Below, piece after piece: positions 22,089 through 50,866 of a stretch of DNA of 64,000 bases. Within the stretch, counting starts at the first letter, position 1. Each line of letters starts with the position of its first letter. The position numbers were made by a program, and so were the translations under genes. The stretch is from the NCBI GenBank assembly GCA_965246915.1, contig CBDFGB010000018.1, positions 11,617 through 75,616 on the forward strand. The letters are read 5' to 3'. A model generated the notes under the pieces. It was not told the origin of the DNA and searched no databases. It saw only the letters and a list, made by a program, of their open reading frames with translations. Source of the stretch: Acetobacteraceae bacterium (GTDB lineage: Bacteria > Pseudomonadota > Alphaproteobacteria > Acetobacterales > Acetobacteraceae).

Positions 22089-22382
22089 TTATCCGTCGCT
22101 CGAGCCGGGCGGCGTATCCCAGACGTTCTGGTAAACCGCCGCCAGCGGCAGCTCGATCCCAACTTCCGGCAATGGGATCGCGCCCTCAATGACGACTCGC
22201 CCCACCCAGTCGTCGCCCGCGCGTGAGAGGACGGTGGCCGCCGTGCGGTCCTGCTCCAGCATGACGTAATGCTGGATCGGGCGGGTCCGCCGACGCAACG
22301 CCTGGCTGGCCTCCCAGTCGAGAAACCGGGCCAAGCTCCATCGCAGCGGTCGTTGGGCGAAGTACATAATCGATAGTATCAT
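22089..22382 (-). CDS. possible Uma2-family endonuclease C-terminal fragment (97 aa)
   Basis: ...[52 protein letters not shown] resembles the C-terminal third of Uma2/DUF820 proteins. No N-terminal catalytic part, and the start region is A/T-rich. Weak call. Confidence 0.3.
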
Positions 22383-22467
22383 TCGCTCCCTGGGCTCGTC
22401 GATGTTGCCGCCCCGCCGCGGGCGCATTAGGCACGGTCGAGCCATTCCCGAAGGAACTCCGCCCGCC

Positions 22468-23697
<1,230 letters not shown>

Positions 23698-23797
23698 CGA
23701 AGGCGTCAAACAAATGTCGGCTGGTAGAATGACGTCTCGACGGATGTTCAGGTAGTCTCGGTCACGCTGACGCAGATGACGGCACGAGCGTGTTTGC

Positions 23798-25317
23798 TTA
23801 AATTGCGCGGGCGGCACTGCCCTGCCGAAGAATTTCCCGGAGCTCGGCCACGGGCTCAGGCCCAATTCCGTAGCCCCTGTCGCGCTGGGATGGGGCAGGA
23901 CTGTTCGCAGCAGTGAGCCGATGTCGCGGTAGCCGCGCACGCGGATGTCGCGCAGGGCCGCCAGCAGCATCATCTCGACCGACTTGAAGCACGAGACCAT
24001 TGCCTGTCGGGGATAGGCGGCGAGAGCAAATGAAAACAGGATTCCAAGCGCCTGTTCCTCCGCCGCCTGGGTGTCCACGTCCTTAGATATGCCGGATAAT
24101 ACCTTCTCGGTGGCGGTCACGGCGGCGAGCAAGGCGTCTTCCATCCCGGCTGCAACGGCAGATTTCATGCAAAGGTCGATATAGAAGACGGGACTGTGGG
24201 CCAGCGGCGCGGTCTTTTGCCGGTCGGAGATATGCACCATCGTCATTGCATGGGCGGCCATATCGCCTAGCGTCGCGATACAGCCCCGAACTACGGCCTC
24301 ATTCGGATGCTTCGCGGCGTCCTCGCAGATGGCCTTGATGTTTTCGTAGATGGGGCCGAGCACGTCGTCGATGTCGCTCACCCCAATAGGCATTCCACCG
24401 CTCCAATCGGGCAACAGCAGCATGCTGTCGCGCCGCGCCTCGGCGTAAGTCTTGCCGATTTCGGCCATGGTGCGGACGATGGCGTTGACCGCATGGGTGT
24501 CACGCCGTGCGATTGCCCTGCGGGCGAATTCCTCAAGCTGCGTGGTCCAGACGTTCAGCGCGTTCGCCAGCTTCGACTTGGAATAACAGGCGTACCGGAA
24601 GGCTTCGATGTTGATGTCATCTCCCAGTGCAACACGTTGGATGCGGACAAGCCGCTCAACTCCGCTCCTGGTTTGTCGGACGTATCGGCTGCATTCATTG
24701 CTTACCAGACTGAGCGCTGTCGCCGGGTCGAGCAAATCCAGCGCACGGCTGTAGAATGCGCGCAGCGCGTCCAATGACGCGCCCAGCAGGACGAACTGCC
24801 CGGCAAGCGCGTATCGGGGGCTGAGCGAAAATGTCCAGCCTGCGCCGAGCAGCAACGAGGCCAGCGCCGCACATGACAGCAGCGCAAAAGCGCCGAGCGT
24901 TGTCGCGTCGCGCGCGTACAGCTTGAGGATGGCGGAAGAGAAAACGTCGGCAGCCTTCTGGGCGGGCACGATGGAAAGAGACAGAACCAGCGCGAGCGCG
25001 GTGCCGATGATACCCGCGCTCGCCAGATGCACCTCGCTCGCCTTGAGCGCGGCGCTCGTCGCCACAGCTTCCGGCAGGGTGAGCGCGAACAGCGCCGCAA
25101 GCAGCAGCCCTACGGCCGTTGCTATCCACCTAGTTGCGAAGGTCACGGCAGTGCGCACCGTCACATGCGCCTGATTGCGCACCTCGAGGAGCGCCAGACG
25201 CGTGCGGAGAATGTTGCGTTTCCTCGCGACGCGAAGTTTACGCCGAAACAGGCGATATCGCGCCTTCGCCGCGTGCTTGGTTCTTTGGGCGAGAAGGGAC
25301 AGGCGTAGAAGCCGCAT
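23798..25317 (-). CDS. hypothetical ~500-aa membrane protein (basic N-terminus, about 4 TM helices, helical C-terminal domain); apparent frameshift near the 3' end, possible pseudogene
   Basis: Protein-like sequence runs from MRLLRLSLLAQRTK... (ATG 25317) to ...RGYRDIGSLLRTVLPHPS. The frame then has no stop until 22186, antisense to all of argG. The adjacent frame gives a plausible end ...RGYGIGPEPVAELREILRQGSAARAI-TAA at 23798. The 1520-nt span is not a multiple of 3. Confidence 0.5.
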
Positions 25318-25330
25318 GAGAATGCTCACG

Positions 25331-25765
25331 TCAGTCCCTAGGCGTGGCTTTCCCCTGTCCCTCGGTCCAGACTTCGGCGAGCTTCGCCATGAGTGCATTG
25401 AACAGACGAGGCGGGAGAAACCCGTAGGCGTAGGTGTCGCGCGATCGGGGAACTGAGCGCAGGTCGAAGCCCGGCCACGTGAATTCGTTCACCTCGTCGA
25501 CCACAACCCATGAGCGGTCGGCATCGAGGCCGAGGTGACGTTTCACCGCAGTGGGCAACTCTATCGCAGTCGCCGGATGGTCGGGTGGGCAGTGCGTCAC
25601 GGGCGCCACCCGGACCATCGTGGAGCCGTCGGCTGCTTTCTGCGCCGCGAGGACGACGACGCAGGGGCGGTTCTTGACGCCCTCTTCCCGACCAGCCCTG
25701 TGTTCGTGATGCCATAGATACGCGTAGGAAACAACCATGCCAGGCTGCGGTTCGGGAAACGCCAT
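25331..25765 (-). CDS. PemK/MazF-like type II toxin
   Basis: N-terminal pattern PQPGMVVSYAYLWHHEHRAGREEGVKNRPCVVVLA matches the PemK-fold P.pG.vv....G.E..K.RP.vVv. 144 aa, directly downstream of a small antitoxin-like gene. Confidence 0.6.
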   Translation of the reverse strand: MAFPEPQPGMVVSYAYLWHHEHRAGREEGVKNRPCVVVLAAQKAADGSTMVRVAPVTHCPPDHPATAIELPTAVKRHLGLDADRSWVVVDEVNEFTWPGFDLRSVPRSRDTYAYGFLPPRLFNALMAKLAEVWTEGQGKATPRD

Positions 25766-25776
25766 ATTTGGACAGG

Positions 25777-26046
25777 CTATTCCTTGTCCAACAGTGCGTT
25801 GAGGTGGTCGTGCTCGGGGGCCATGCGGCCGGCCGCCATCTGCTCGATTTCTTCCTTCGTCATATCGACGACGGCCCGGCTGCGCCGCGCATAAGCCCGA
25901 AGGCGTTGCAGCTCCTCGAACTCGACGGCCGACACGAAATAACCCGTAGCCCGGCCATGGCTGGTCACCGCCACTGGCTCGCGCTGGGCGATTTCCCGGT
26001 ATTGCCCGAAGTTGCGGGTGAACTCGGTCGCTGGAACCTCACGCAT
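25777..26046 (-). CDS. Phd/YefM-family type II antitoxin
   Basis: MREVPATEFTRNFGQYREIAQREPVAVTSHGRATGYFVSAVEFEELQ is the classic Phd/YefM N-terminal fold. 89 aa; GAGG RBS; its stop lies 11 nt upstream of the toxin start. Confidence 0.7.
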   Translation of the reverse strand: MREVPATEFTRNFGQYREIAQREPVAVTSHGRATGYFVSAVEFEELQRLRAYARRSRAVVDMTKEEIEQMAAGRMAPEHDHLNALLDKE

Positions 26047-26067
26047 AGCGCCTCGCTTTCTATACGC

Positions 26068-26096
26068 AATTTACGCATTTTGTGCGAAATTATCAA
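26068..26096 (-). promoter_or_regulatory. sigma70-like promoter of the toxin-antitoxin operon with an embedded dyad
   Basis: On the minus strand: TTGATA, 17 nt, TAAATT, then about 20 nt to ATG 26046. The spacer contains the inverted repeat CGCA-CAAAA-TGCG, a plausible autoregulatory operator. Confidence 0.45.
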
Positions 26097-26238
26097 GGTG
26101 ATCGGGCGACAGCGATGGGCAAGGCCGCCGAACCAGCGGCATAGCTCGCTACATGTCGGACGTCGGCACGTGCCGCGCATTCTCCAATCGGGCGATCACC
26201 GATTGCATGTATCGAGCTCCCCGGCGAGGAGCGGTGCC

Positions 26239-27135
26239 TCAAACCTTCCTCGTCGAAGCCCCATAAATCTCCTCGATCGCCTCGCCCAGCGCCGCATCGA
26301 ACTCCGCCTCGCTCATGGAATGCCGCAAATCGCCGATCAACGCGCGCGAGAAACTCGCGATCATGCCGTGGTTCTCAGCCAGCCGACGGCACGCGTCGGC
26401 CCGCGTGTACCCGCCAGACAGCGCCACCACCCGCATCACCCGCGGATGCGCGATCAGCCCCGCATACAGATCCGGCACGTCCGGAATCGTGAGCTTCAGC
26501 ATCACCTGCCGCCCCTCCGGCAGCGCGTCGGCATGGCGGCTCAACTCCGCAAGCAGGATCGCCTCCGCCCCCGCCTTGTCCGGGCTCTTGATGGAGACTT
26601 CCGGCTCGATGATCGGCATCAGCCCGTGCGCCGCGATCCGCGCGGCCACGTCGAATTGCTGCGCCACGATCGCCGCGATCCCCGCCTGCGAGGGCAGATT
26701 GATCACCGAACGCATCTTGGTGCCGAAAATCCCGAGCCCGACCGCACGCGCCAGCAATTCATCGAGGCCAGAAATCGGCTTCATCAACTGGACCCCGTCC
26801 GCCTCGGCCTCCAGCCCCTTGTCGACCTTCAGGAACGGCACGATGCCCCGGTCCTGCCAAAGATACGAAGGCACCGCCTTGCCCTTCGCCTGTCCGTCCA
26901 TCGTGCGCTCGAACAGGATCGCGGCGATGACCTTGTCGCCGCTGAACGCCGGCGCGGTGATGATGCGCACCCGCATCTCATGCACCAGCCGGAACATCTC
27001 CGCCTCGCCGCTGTAGGCGCTCTCGGGAATGCCGTACAGACGCAGCGCCCCCGGCGTGGAGCCGCCGCTCTGGTCGAGGGCGGCGATGAAACCGCCCTTG
27101 CCGGCCATCTGCGCCGTCATCGTCTCGTCGGCCAT
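26239..27135 (-). CDS. fba: class I fructose-bisphosphate aldolase
   Basis: GFIAALDQSGGSTPGALRLYGI...ILFERTMD...PFLKVDKGL is the class I (Schiff-base) FBA pattern. ATG 27135 is preferred over 27144 because of the GAGGATGAGGA RBS. Confidence 0.9.
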   Translation of the reverse strand: MADETMTAQMAGKGGFIAALDQSGGSTPGALRLYGIPESAYSGEAEMFRLVHEMRVRIITAPAFSGDKVIAAILFERTMDGQAKGKAVPSYLWQDRGIVPFLKVDKGLEAEADGVQLMKPISGLDELLARAVGLGIFGTKMRSVINLPSQAGIAAIVAQQFDVAARIAAHGLMPIIEPEVSIKSPDKAGAEAILLAELSRHADALPEGRQVMLKLTIPDVPDLYAGLIAHPRVMRVVALSGGYTRADACRRLAENHGMIASFSRALIGDLRHSMSEAEFDAALGEAIEEIYGASTRKV

Positions 27136-27210
27136 TTTCCTCATCCTCGCTCGGACCAGCGCCGACGACCTAATGACATGGCCCGCAAGAGGCGTGCAAT
27201 CGCGCGGCAG

Positions 27211-46137: not shown

Positions 46138-47385
<1,248 letters not shown>

Positions 47386-47464
47386 GCTCGCCCGCTCCGC
47401 TATGCCCGCGGAGAACCTACACCGCGCACACCTGTCCGAGAACGTGCGCCGGCAGCATATTGCG

Positions 47465-47700
47465 GAGTGGGTCAGGTTGACGGACGATGCGGCGCAACCT
47501 GCGCCTCATTGCAAAGCCGGACAGAAGCAATTTCGGCCCAAGTTGGGCCGAAAGGTCGGAGCACCTCGCCGAGTGGGTCAGGCTGACGGAGAAGGTGGCT
47601 CAACTTGAGCCACCTTTGGGAGATCGCCGCGTGGAGCAGGCTGACGGATAAACCGGCGCAACTTTCGCCGATATTCCTAAAGGTTCTGCGCAACCTGCGC
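47465..47700. repeat. three degenerate direct repeats, each followed by a CAAC(Y)T-loop hairpin, plus a 23-bp palindrome
   Basis: The repeats GAGTGGGTCAGGTTGACGGA (47465), GAGTGGGTCAGGCTGACGGA (47571) and GCGTGGAGCAGGCTGACGGA (47629) each contain the dyad GTCAG-N-CTGAC or a near match. Hairpins lie at 47491-47505, 47594-47614 and 47655-47669, and GCGCAACCTGCGC recurs at 47688-47700. The palindrome TTTCGGCCCAA-G-TTGGGCCGAAA is at 47531-47553. Confidence 0.7.
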
Positions 47701-47784
47701 AAAACCCAAAGGGCGGTCGTCCTGGCGTATTCTCCGCTGCCGTCCGTGAACTCGGCATCGAACGAACGAGGCCCAGCGCGCCGT

Positions 47785-48045
47785 CTAAAGGATTTGCAGC
47801 TCGAATCGCGTCGCGCCGGCAACGCCGGAGGCGGGATGATCGACAAGCAGGATGCCTGAGGGCCGCGCGCCGCAGCCTCCGCACCGGAGCCGAGTGACGA
47901 CACGATAGACGGTCTTCGCCGGCGGGAAGCGTCGCAGAGGCAGGGTTCCGGCTCGTTTGCACGCGCATCGGACGTCTAACCAGTAGGCGGATAGGCCGCC
48001 GCATGTGGCCTCCAGTGCGTCAATCGAGGTAGCCGGATGCCCCAT
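47785..48045 (-). CDS. hypothetical Cys-rich small protein (possible zinc ribbon) heading the leftward int-proximal transcript
   Basis: 86-aa ORF with an ATG start and C..C...C.C......C..C spacing (TCGG, CAC, RLRCGGCG). Competing overlapping ORFs exist on both strands. Confidence 0.3.
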   Translation of the reverse strand: MGHPATSIDALEATCGGLSAYWLDVRCACKRAGTLPLRRFPPAKTVYRVVTRLRCGGCGARPSGILLVDHPASGVAGATRFELQIL

Positions 48046-48114
48046 CCCTGGAGCCTAGGGCCGTCGGGGTGAGAGAACAAGACGTGAACGATGTTCATTC
48101 CGGGTAAAGTAGCT

Positions 48115-48221
48115 TGTAGCCCTTTCCACTACAGTTTGGTTCATAGGAGTGTAGCCCTTTCCGCTACCACGTTTTAGTGAAACACCGCGCAGTAGATTAC
48201 GCATCGTCTGTCAGTTATAGT
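48115..48221 (+). promoter_or_regulatory. promoter/operator module of the rightward replication operon
   Basis: Two copies of TGTAGCCCTTTCC(A/G)CTAC lie at 48115 and 48150. They are followed by CACCGCGCAGTAGATT (48183-48198), a 17-nt spacer and TATAGT (48216-48221). The same CACCGCGCAGTAGATT-N17-CATAGT module recurs at 52224-52262. Confidence 0.5.
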
Positions 48222-48254
48222 GTGTCGAACACCACCTGATAGAGAGGCTAGACC

Positions 48255-48872
48255 ATGCTCAACACCATGAGCCATAGCGAGCGCCGGCATGCGAAGCCGG
48301 TCACGAACCATACGCCGGACCAAATCCGATACCTCCGCCAGTCGTTCTCTGACGCGAAGGACGAGCATCTGACCGCGGCGCGATGCGGCCCACACGGCGG
48401 CCCGCCCGCCACGCCCTACGCATGGGCCAAGGAGTGCGTGTATTCGTGGGCAGATGCCCCGTTCACCCGAGCGGCGGATTCGACGACCTACGGCAAGATC
48501 TATACGTGCCCGCTGGCCGGCTCGGTCCAGGCGGATGCCGCGAACCATCAACGCTTCGATGGCCAGCCTGCAGTTGTCGAGACGGTCCCGCTAGGCCGCT
48601 GCGGCGTGACGGGCGCGTGGTGCTGGGGCGATGCGGTCGTGGCGCTGCTGTCCGACGCGAACCTTTGCGACCAGGTCCTCCGGATCGTGGTGCGCCGCGG
48701 CGATCGCCCCGACGCGGGCATCTTCATGAAAGACGGTCGGGTCAGCCGCTTCTGCGCCGACGCGGACCAGCTGCACCTGGACGCGCTCGATGCACAGGGT
48801 CATTGCGCGGAATGGACGTTCGTCGGTGGGGCGGTCCTCGCGGCGTTGGCTCGCGAGTTGGCCGCGTCATGA
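48255..48872 (+). CDS. hypothetical protein (first gene of the rightward operon)
   Basis: AGAGAGG RBS; 205 aa. The stop overlaps the next ATG (ATGA). The antisense alternative is Arg-rich junk. Confidence 0.5.
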   Translation: MLNTMSHSERRHAKPVTNHTPDQIRYLRQSFSDAKDEHLTAARCGPHGGPPATPYAWAKECVYSWADAPFTRAADSTTYGKIYTCPLAGSVQADAANHQRFDGQPAVVETVPLGRCGVTGAWCWGDAVVALLSDANLCDQVLRIVVRRGDRPDAGIFMKDGRVSRFCADADQLHLDALDAQGHCAEWTFVGGAVLAALARELAAS

Positions 48873-50866
48873 GCGGTGCCCCGGCTGTTGCGCGCGCGGC
48901 CGGGGCAACCGTCCTGGAGCGCATGCTTGCCGTTGCGGCGGAAGGCTATCCCGTGTTTCTCGGGCGACTCGTATCCAAGCCGGGCGGCGGGCATGACAAG
49001 AAACCCGCGATGAAAGGTTGGCAGAAGCGCGCCACTCGTGACCCCGAAGCCATCCGGCGCATGTGTGCCGAGTATCCAAACGCGACGTTGATATGCGTCC
49101 GGACTGGCGAGACCTCTGGCATCGATGCAGTCGACGTGGACCCGCGTAGCGGAGGTGACGTCTGGGAGCGAGACAATTTAGATCTCCTACCCACTACGCG
49201 GGTACACAAGACGCTTTCGGGTGGATCGCACTATATCTATCGGCATGCGTCGGGCGTGCATAACACGGCCGGAGCGATCGCGAAGGGAATCGACACGCGC
49301 GGGACAGGCGGATTCATCGTCTGGTGGCCTGTCTGCGGGGGCAGCGTCCGCGTCAATGCTCCGGTATCCGAGTGGCACGAAGACCTTCGCGCTCTTGCCG
49401 TGAGGAAGTCCGAACCAAGCCCCATTTTGGCGCCACTACCATCCGTTGTGACCACGGACGAAGCCCAAGCCATCTTGCAAGACGCATGCATCGTCATGGA
49501 GTGCGCGGCGAGAGGCGAGCGATATGCCGTTGCGACTAAAATAACGTGGGAGCTGGCACCACTCGCCATCCGCGGCGATCTCGACCCAACAGAAGCCGAA
49601 GAAGCGATCGTCGCCGCTGCGGAGGCTGCCGGCGGCGAGGACATGAACAAGGTTCGCGTTCTGTGGCGGGGCGCCCTCGAAAAGCGAGATAAGAAGCCCT
49701 GGATCGAGCCGCCCCCTCCCGAGGAGGACTTTGGCGAAGGCACGGATGGTTCGCCTCTGTCCGGCGATCGCGAACCGGAACCCGTTACCGATGGTCATAA
49801 GCGGGGCAGCATGCTTGATCGCATGCTCTCGCCGGCACAGTGCGAGGACGGTCCGCGGCGGGAGTACATCATCAAGGGGCTAGCCGCGCGTCAAGACTTG
49901 TCCGTCATCTTTGGTCACCCCGGATCGGGCAAAAGCATCATAACGCCGCATATAGCTTACGCGCTCGCGCAAGGTCGCAATGTGTTTGGGCGGCGTACAC
50001 GCCAAGGCCGAGTCCTTTACATCGCTGCTGAAGATTTCCATGGCATGTGCGCGCGGATCACCGCGCTACGGCGAAAGTATGGAGATGCGGAGGACTTCCG
50101 CGTTGTTGGCTGTGGCAATCTGAACGAACAGCGCGAACGGGATGACGTGAAGTCCGCCGTCACTGTGTTCCGACCAATGCTAGTCGTTATAGACACGGTC
50201 GCGACCGGATGGGCGGGCATGGACGAGAATGACAACTCCGATAAGGGAATGGGCGCGGTTGTAGCTTTCGGAAAGGCTCTTACAGCGCTCGGCCCTGCCG
50301 TGATCCTCGTCCACCATCCCGCCAAGAATGGCGACACGCCTCGCGGGGGCTACGTCTTAGAAGGAGCGGCAGATCTAAGCGCGCGACTTGACGTGAAAGA
50401 CGACTCAGGAATCGTACAGGTTTACGCGCTAAAGAACCGTAACGGTGCGTCGATGCAAAACATCATCGACTTCCGCTTTGAAGTCGTCGGTCTCGGGACT
50501 GACGAGGACGGCGACCCGATCACGACGGTCCGGTGTGTCGAGCTAGAGGCGGGCGAGACGGCGAAGCGCAGCAAGAAATTGGCGCCCGCTGCCGCAGCTG
50601 CGTTGCATGAGCTGCGGGCGCTGGCCTTGGACCGCAAAGACGGACGGGTCGCGGAGTCCGAATGGCGGGCCGCCTGCGTCGAAGGGCGTCGGGTTAGCGC
50701 GATGGAAGACGCGGCCAGCCGCGCGAAAGCGTTCACCCGCGCCGTGACGGCCCTAACCCGTAGCGGCATCGTCGGTTCAAGTTCGGGCAACGTCTGGGTT
50801 ATCGAGGGCGCAAGTGCCTCCCTTGCCGATCTCGTCTCGGGATCTCCAGAGGAGGACTTCGCATGA
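48869..50866 (+). CDS. bifunctional Prim-Pol primase/polymerase with C-terminal RecA-like AAA (RepA/AAA_25-type) domain
   Basis: Prim-Pol N-terminus (YPVFL..., IDAVDVDPRSGG, SGGSHYIYR, KGIDTRGTGGFIVWWP). Walker A GHPGSGKS, Walker B LVVIDT, then ILVHHPAKNG. ATG 48869 chosen; the track ORF begins 162 codons earlier in non-protein-like sequence. Confidence 0.85.
   Translation: MSGAPAVARAAGATVLERMLAVAAEGYPVFLGRLVSKPGGGHDKKPAMKGWQKRATRDPEAIRRMCAEYPNATLICVRTGETSGIDAVDVDPRSGGDVWERDNLDLLPTTRVHKTLSGGSHYIYRHASGVHNTAGAIAKGIDTRGTGGFIVWWPVCGGSVRVNAPVSEWHEDLRALAVRKSEPSPILAPLPSVVTTDEAQAILQDACIVMECAARGERYAVATKITWELAPLAIRGDLDPTEAEEAIVAAAEAAGGEDMNKVRVLWRGALEKRDKKPWIEPPPPEEDFGEGTDGSPLSGDREPEPVTDGHKRGSMLDRMLSPAQCEDGPRREYIIKGLAARQDLSVIFGHPGSGKSIITPHIAYALAQGRNVFGRRTRQGRVLYIAAEDFHGMCARITALRRKYGDAEDFRVVGCGNLNEQRERDDVKSAVTVFRPMLVVIDTVATGWAGMDENDNSDKGMGAVVAFGKALTALGPAVILVHHPAKNGDTPRGGYVLEGAADLSARLDVKDDSGIVQVYALKNRNGASMQNIIDFRFEVVGLGTDEDGDPITTVRCVELEAGETAKRSKKLAPAAAAALHELRALALDRKDGRVAESEWRAACVEGRRVSAMEDAASRAKAFTRAVTALTRSGIVGSSSGNVWVIEGASASLADLVSGSPEEDFA

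Follow-up and report, generated by a model that had tools for sequence, protein, structure and literature searches.

In toxin-antitoxin-chaperone systems, the third gene of the operon encodes a SecB-like chaperone. In the regulator type of three-gene toxin-antitoxin (TA) operon, the third gene is a small regulator located upstream of the antitoxin and toxin genes; among two-gene type II systems, hybrid pairs combine an antitoxin of the Phd/YefM superfamily with a toxin of the CcdB/MazF superfamily, and antitoxin and toxin families recombine freely ("mix and match") (PMC3337138). Here we analysed a 64,000-nt stretch of an Acetobacteraceae genome (hereafter the window), in which three co-oriented open reading frames (ORFs) with one promoter lie on the minus strand between argG and the class I fructose-bisphosphate aldolase gene fba. 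The first two ORFs are a Phd/YefM antitoxin gene and a MazF/PemK-fold toxin gene, and the third is what remains of a gene for a large membrane protein. The TA pair belongs to a known kind, while the membrane protein family is uncharacterised. The locus is most probably a horizontally acquired, autonomous TA cassette together with decaying mobile-element cargo, which has been inactivated here by a deletion.

Compared with the hybrid type II systems, the locus shows the same gene order with the antitoxin first, a short spacer, an autoregulated-looking promoter with repeats, a MazF-fold toxin, and a patchy, multi-copy and horizontally mobile distribution. It differs from them in its toxin, of 144 aa, which belongs to a divergent subfamily extended by a C-terminal helix and matches no NCBIfam model and no PDB sequence, a profile search with the family included. 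The similarity to three-gene TA operons lies in the tight spacing and common orientation of the three genes, with a single promoter in front, an arrangement found in one shallow clade of the membrane protein family. However, the third gene encodes a membrane and solenoid protein of about 750 aa and stands downstream; moreover, it is absent from nearly all homologous pairs and is dispensable for the persistence of the pair. The locus also resembles island-stabilising TA modules, with an intact TA pair beside degraded cargo at a synteny breakpoint and recombinase genes near relatives of the cargo, although no integrase, att repeats or insertion sequence (IS) ends are left at the window locus.

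The toxin-antitoxin pair and its promoter

The identity of the pair, first suggested by a sequence-only reading of the window, was confirmed by profile and structure searches, and both genes are intact. The antitoxin matched the Pfam family PhdYeFM_antitox (PF02604) over residues 1-71 (E 4.1e-9, 36.5 bits against a curated cut-off of 29.8) and the NCBIfam model TIGR01552, phd_fam (26.5 bits, cut-off 20.8), and shares 93-98% identity with its counterparts in two related loci, L001 and L017. The toxin scored marginally above the curated threshold of the Pfam family PemK_toxin (PF02452), with 26.5 bits where 23.1 are required (E 7.6e-6; residues 25-130). An AlphaFold2 (AF2) model built from 20 homologues had a predicted local distance difference test score (pLDDT) of 85.3 and a predicted template modelling score (pTM) of 0.83. 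When this model was compared with the PDB by Foldseek, MazF structures made up the top 23 matches and 25 of the top 26, the exception being the type III toxin CptN; the MazF matches had a probability of 1.0 and target-normalised template modelling (TM) scores of 0.66-0.73. In the toxin family alignment (A2), K31, R33 and H58 are invariant and P34 and T57 near-invariant, and the window toxin carries all 25 invariant columns, by construction of that alignment. By motif position, and not by structural superposition, we tentatively place these five residues at the Arg-Pro and Thr motifs of MazF. By analogy with MazF, the toxin is predicted to be a sequence-specific endoribonuclease.

A promoter scan of positions 23600-26300 gave a single sigma70-like match, which is the cassette promoter, with TTGATA at 26096-26091 and TAAATT at 26073-26068 on the minus strand, 17 nt apart. 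Thus all of the elements of the proposed arrangement, three same-strand genes behind one sigma70-like promoter, are present. The -35 and -10 boxes (TTGACA ... TAAAtT) are kept upstream of the Phd gene in L001, L017, L049, L061 and L062, and the promoter of L063 is more diverged. An operator-like feature overlies the promoter as had been proposed, but it is not a clean dyad: what is conserved is a set of two or three repeats of the GCGTAAA(A/T)T type, spaced by 9 bp, which span the spacer and the -10 box, and the CGCA..TGCG dyad appears in the window because the first repeat is degenerate there. The sequence GCGTAAAATGCGTAAA(A/T)T(G/A)CG is kept whether the TA locus carries the membrane gene (L001, L017 and L049) or lacks it (L061 and L062). 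Two-gene loci likewise retain the promoter and these GCGTAAA(A/T)T repeats, which belong to the TA pair. The repeats presumably form a binding site for Phd or the Phd-toxin complex, and their conservation in the promoter speaks for autoregulation of the pair.

The stand-alone nature of the pair was evident from the toxin side. Of the 401 genomes of the order, 102 encode the toxin, frequently more than once. Among the 29 best non-self toxin loci, a Phd-like gene lies directly upstream in 26, and the membrane gene is present in none (0/29). The two-gene loci include toxins that are 67-72% and antitoxins that are 82-87% identical to those of the window. The Phd-toxin pair, with its promoter and repeats, is therefore a common stand-alone two-gene module.

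The third gene and its protein family

The spacer between the antitoxin stop and the toxin start is 11 nt, as had been reported. The second spacer, given as about 13 nt, had been counted from an ATG at 25317; a likelier start is the GTG at 25329, only 1 nt past the toxin stop, which matches the homologue in L001. From this start, the 5' part of the third gene encodes a basic N-terminal helix, four transmembrane helices and the first stretch of an alpha-solenoid. It is 81% identical to residues 1-478 of the full-length relative P0001, and in tblastn the similarity spans residues 3-483 in one frame (to about 23882-23893). Beyond this point, 764-766 bp are missing and the frame changes. The 3' end of the gene follows in another frame, with 68% identity by tblastn (E 2e-7, aligned over 23886-23804), 75-81% identity by blastn to L001, L033, L017 and L030, and a natural stop, TAA, at 23800-23798. 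Thus, the sequence-only description of a protein of about 500 aa with four transmembrane helices was right in recognising a membrane ORF with four such helices but not in its size, as the ORF is a remnant of a family of about 750-780 aa. Judged from these alignments, the window copy of the gene is a deletion pseudogene. The internal deletion of 764-766 bp rules out two simpler explanations, a +/-1 shift at the 3' end and a truncation of that end. Relocation of the C-terminal half within the genome was likewise ruled out, since the missing segment of about 765 bp is absent elsewhere in the 4.02-Mb assembly, and each of the three genes occurs only once in the genome. The deletion looks recent because the remaining 5' part has no other lesion.

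The interruption might instead be an artefact of assembly or consensus, or a minority variant in a metagenome bin, in which case the real gene would be intact and encode about 770 aa. The genome is a draft of 33 contigs with 95.6% completeness, which leaves some room for this. However, the junction is clean and the junction sequences examined contained no long repeat at the break that could have collapsed the assembly, the missing segment is found nowhere in the assembly, and relatives show comparable natural truncations; hence we consider an artefact very improbable. In L049 (2604-3335), the membrane gene is cut to 243 aa while the adjacent TA pair is intact, and a putative acetyltransferase-like ORF (not scanned) and then a serine recombinase gene follow downstream. 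In L090 (3001-4911), it has been independently cut to 636 aa beside an IS DDE transposase gene. The deletion pseudogene in the window and these independent truncations agree with the alternative that the sequence-only reading had allowed, namely that the membrane gene is unrelated cargo in decay.

The deletion has a further consequence for annotation. The open frame at 22186-25398 on the minus strand runs on without a stop until 22186, antisense through argG, and amounts to 1,070 codons, because the shifted frame of the pseudogene stays open antisense to argG in a genome of 67% GC. Gene callers may label this frame as a long hypothetical protein, and the 1,070-aa ORF should not be called. What the genome annotation gains is one intact TA pair of the Phd-MazF type and one pseudogene on a small foreign islet.

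To characterise the family, we used its full-length members. A database search returned 94 homologues, nearly all of which measure 740-780 aa and lack a Pfam domain. A profile search of 1.84 billion representatives returned 655 clusters, defined at 50% identity, at E <= 1e-3 and 247 at E <= 1e-30, most of them of 700-790 aa. No family model in Pfam, NCBIfam, PADLOC or PHROG matched. The AF2 model of full-length P0001 (pLDDT 85.6, pTM 0.76) consists of three parts: a long basic N-terminal helix, four membrane helices, and an all-helical repeat domain of about 550 aa, an alpha-solenoid. By the positive-inside rule, both the basic N-terminus and the solenoid would be cytoplasmic. The best-conserved block of the family lies around the second transmembrane helix (TM2) and the following loop, and the most conserved stretch of the four-helix domain reads SEVHLASAGIIGTALALVLSLSIVPAQKAADVF. 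No catalytic motif is evident in the protein.

A comparison with DUF2254 (PF10011), suggested together with the original description, gave a weak resemblance of the transmembrane part below the threshold. The best score was 19.7 bits against a gathering cut-off of 28.8 and covered profile positions 11-168 of 368; residues 71-221 of P0001 align to the model, and E <= 0.01 was reached in 7 of 26 family members. The likeness is thus one of a four-helix transmembrane region with weak profile similarity, whereas the solenoid of about 550 aa is without counterpart in the DUF2254 model. We found no functional information on DUF2254 in the literature. A specific structural homologue of the solenoid was sought by Foldseek against the PDB and BFVD, and only generic HEAT/ARM/TPR and designed repeat proteins were returned, with low TM scores; there was no significant match among the viral models of BFVD. 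A match in genome G257 (L021) was treated as spurious similarity in the transmembrane region, as its long ORF looks like a GGDEF/EAL protein by its motifs (no Pfam scan).

The protein P0066 (926 aa; L014, 460-3240) carries an N-terminal Fic/Doc domain (PF02661, E 8.7e-13) fused to a complete membrane and solenoid protein of this family. At its locus, the upstream ORF is a 5'-nucleotidase fragment, with no Phd antitoxin, and an HTH_17 gene lies downstream.

The membrane gene occurs in 3 of 301 genomes of the bacterial family and in none of three congeners. In a plasmid collection, a single match was found among 72,556 entries, unannotated, on an Ensifer megaplasmid. Known members come from Alphaproteobacteria and from an Acidimicrobiales metagenome-assembled genome. 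This distribution bears on the possibility that the protein serves a housekeeping or core envelope function and neighbours the TA pair by chance. Several distant loci do lie among metabolic genes (cbiD, ubiD, metH and truA). However, the patchy occurrence effectively refutes a housekeeping role, the GC content at third codon positions (GC3) of the membrane gene is below that of its neighbours, the gene often stands beside recombinase genes, and it is dispensable here. We regard this explanation as having next to no chance of being correct.

Acquisition of the cassette and linkage of its genes

The islet between argG and fba (23698-26238) has a GC content of 62.4%, against 67.0 +/- 2.1% for the window, and is the third lowest of 615 segments of 2.5 kb. 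It had been described as richer in A/T from a hand count; the difference is real, but it is smaller than that count indicated. The GC3 of the islet is 0.74-0.79, compared with 0.85-0.88 in the four flanking genes measured, argG and fba included. We then compared the synteny of window positions 23697-26239 with the congener G092 (L022 and L026) and with contigs C29, C11 and C1 of the present genome. In G092, argG is followed by three ORFs, one of them MarC-type-like (none was Pfam-scanned), and fba lies 29 kb from argG; part of the region downstream of argG matches contig C29 of the present genome. As the genes downstream of argG in G092 are on another contig here, the cassette stands at a synteny breakpoint. 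A simple empty site is not available for comparison, since argG is not adjacent to fba in the congeners. The lower GC and GC3, the presence of the membrane gene in only three genomes of the bacterial family and in no congener, and the synteny breakpoint together support horizontal acquisition of the islet, as originally proposed.

No flanking repeats, tRNA gene, recombinase or integrase gene, att repeats or IS ends remain at the locus, and a search of the islet's surroundings for direct repeats of the att type and for terminal inverted repeats gave only short matches at chance level. One 13-nt inverted match was noted between the 3' end of the cassette (23795-23807) and the operator region (26065-26077; TGCTTAAATTGCG / CGCAATTTACGCA). 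As a candidate pair of element ends it was rejected, since it is not kept in L001, L017 or L033 and is probably due to chance.

To examine the linkage from the side of the membrane gene, its loci were collected by exact look-up, a genome scan and a metagenome scan; some of these are redundant (L001 = L002 = L027; L017 = L018 = L028 = L029). The Phd-toxin pair stands upstream of the membrane gene only in the window, L001, L017 and L049, which are four contexts with unrelated flanks, and about 30 distinct membrane-gene loci are without the pair. DNA homology to the window begins at the -35 box (26090-26104) in L001, L017 and L049; in L001 and L017 it extends as far as the stop codon of the membrane gene (about 23808), and in L049 to 24638, where the copy is truncated. 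As homology runs from the -35 box onward between unrelated flanks, the three genes moved as one block, and they form one unit in these genomes (in L049 up to the truncation point). In a maximum-likelihood tree, all of the TA-linked copies fall into one shallow clade of six members (support 100/99), which also holds L030 and L015, the latter with an integrase gene upstream and a PrlF-PemK pair downstream; TA linkage was seen in none of the 15 deeper members. Thus the proposal of a three-component module held in so far as a block exists in one shallow clade, but conserved linkage between the membrane family and the TA pair was absent from both sides. A general three-part system is not supported, and the linkage occurs in a few close relatives only.

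In 8 of the 11 contexts with called genes, recombinase or transposase genes or their remnants lie within about 3 kb of the membrane gene. Tyrosine integrase genes directly adjoin it in L019 (3030-6283, with a one-base overlap), L015 (2919-6241) and L003 (5001-8416), suggesting that the family is cargo of small integrative elements. In L001, a short integrase remnant (about 2389-2505) lies upstream of the Phd gene. Other neighbours include serine resolvases, an rve transposase together with AbiEi, type I and type III restriction genes, HerA and Eco57I/XhoI, and in many loci the membrane gene stands alone among metabolic genes. A recurrent partner was sought near 22 further loci, and none was found, the neighbours being mostly diverse metabolic genes. 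In the P0012-type cassette of L017 (6241-7239) and L018 (3964-4962), a gene for a 332-aa HNH_5 nuclease lies 20 nt downstream of the membrane gene and is followed by resolvase genes; it has no equivalent in the window.

The likeness to abortive-infection or defence cassettes, also proposed from the sequence, was not sustained. PADLOC-DB v2 gave no match for the three window proteins or for full-length P0001, P0017, P0078 and P0062, and for P0066 the Fic part alone matched, weakly. Among 100 neighbouring ORFs, the PADLOC matches were few and scattered, so that no clear enrichment of defence genes in the neighbourhood is seen. That the membrane protein acts in defence is conceivable but weakly supported.

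The most probable history, in our view, is therefore that of an autonomous TA cassette with decaying cargo, acquired from outside. The cassette measures about 2.3 kb, where an intact copy would span about 3.07 kb, and its functional portion is probably a canonical, autonomous type II TA pair. Repression of the operon would come from the Phd/YefM antitoxin, either by itself or complexed with the toxin, sitting on the GCGTAAA(A/T)T repeats at the promoter. Once the labile antitoxin had gone, the MazF/PemK-fold toxin would act as an endoribonuclease and stop growth, and this addiction effect would protect the cassette from loss. The pair appears to have come to lie, in a single recent lineage, directly upstream of a mobile-element cargo gene, with which it is probably co-transcribed, given the 1-nt gap and the lack of any terminator found. 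The product of the cargo gene would be an inner-membrane protein of about 750 aa with a basic cytoplasmic N-terminus, four transmembrane helices and a large cytoplasmic alpha-solenoid. The block may later have spread to several genomic contexts, and in the present genome the internal deletion of about 765 bp, with its shift of frame, has inactivated the cargo gene and left the addictive TA pair intact. We infer operator binding, RNase activity, co-transcription and addiction from what is established for Phd/YefM and MazF systems and for the mixing of TA families (PMC3337138). The deletion beside an intact pair indicates that the TA system can do without the third gene, which is inert here, and the locus illustrates clearly how an addictive TA pair can survive the cargo that came with it.

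Several observations weigh against this history. The 1-nt junction between the toxin and membrane genes and the movement of the block in four contexts also fit a functional three-gene unit, P0066 fuses a Doc domain to the same membrane protein, and other TA pairs lie near other members (PrlF-PemK, Fic with a small ORF, and Phd-PIN). Some functional tie between the membrane family and TA toxins is therefore possible. In its stronger form, such a tie would make the three genes a true three-component module in the shallow clade, of which the window holds a dead example: the membrane protein would act as effector or sensor, for instance in abortive infection or exclusion, with its expression under control of the TA promoter, and degradation of the antitoxin under phage attack or stress would de-repress the membrane gene together with the toxin. 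The tight spacing without a terminator, the block homology from the -35 box to the third stop codon (in L049 to the truncation) and the Doc-fused relative can all be read in this way. In addition, some members adjoin the type I/III restriction, Eco57I/XhoI, AbiEi or HerA genes mentioned above, and the combination of a membrane domain with a large repeat domain, a possible sensor, recalls many single-gene defence proteins. However, the third gene is missing from all 29 toxin loci, about 30 membrane-gene loci lack the pair, neither PADLOC nor PHROG gave a match, the neighbours of the 22 further loci are mainly housekeeping genes with scattered PADLOC matches, and in two of the four TA-linked contexts the third gene has been lost or truncated while the TA pair is intact. 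We thus consider a dedicated three-component module unlikely.

A more speculative explanation, to which we give a rather small chance, is that the protein of about 750 aa represents a new family of mobile-element effectors, acting in abortive infection, exclusion or membrane perturbation, which has been repeatedly coupled to TA toxins and is switched on by loss of the antitoxin. The couplings would be the position behind a Phd-MazF promoter in one clade and the fusion to a Doc domain in another, and the window would hold a recently killed copy. The membrane family is unannotated, appears to travel on small mobile elements and is in a few cases linked to TA toxins; its intact relatives are reasonable, low-cost candidates for a phage-defence or exclusion screen.

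Feature coordinates and an unrelated low-GC region

The features of the locus and its flanking genes are collected in the table below.

Table. Features of the argG-fba islet and its flanks, in window coordinates.
Feature	Coordinates	Strand	Evidence
argG (argininosuccinate synthase), left flank	22402..23697	+	Pfam Arginosuc_synth, Arginosuc_syn_C
Membrane gene 3' remnant, other frame (P0001 residues ~737-764)	23798..23886	-	tblastn, blastn
Deletion junction, 764-766 bp gone (residues ~481-736), with frame change	23886..23893	-	blastn against L001, L033, L017, L030
Membrane pseudogene, 5' part (residues 1 to ~478-483 of ~750-780-aa family)	23893..25329	-	Identity to P0001, tblastn
MazF/PemK-fold toxin, 144 aa, intact	25331..25765	-	Pfam PF02452, AF2 model, Foldseek
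Phd/YefM-family antitoxin, 89 aa, intact	25777..26046	-	Pfam PF02604, TIGR01552
Operator-like repeats (CGCACAAAAT GCGTAAATT GCGTA), over spacer and -10 box	26063..26086	-	Conservation
Sigma70-like promoter, TTGATA-17-TAAATT	26068..26096	-	Promoter scan
fba, class I fructose-bisphosphate aldolase, right flank	26239..27144	-	Pfam Glycolytic, 34.1 bits

The lowest-GC part of the window, at 46138-50866, is unrelated to the TA islet. It comprises a tRNA-Thr gene (46138-46209), a tyrosine integrase ORF (46144-47385, minus strand) and a Prim-Pol/AAA_25 replicase gene (48383-50866, plus strand).

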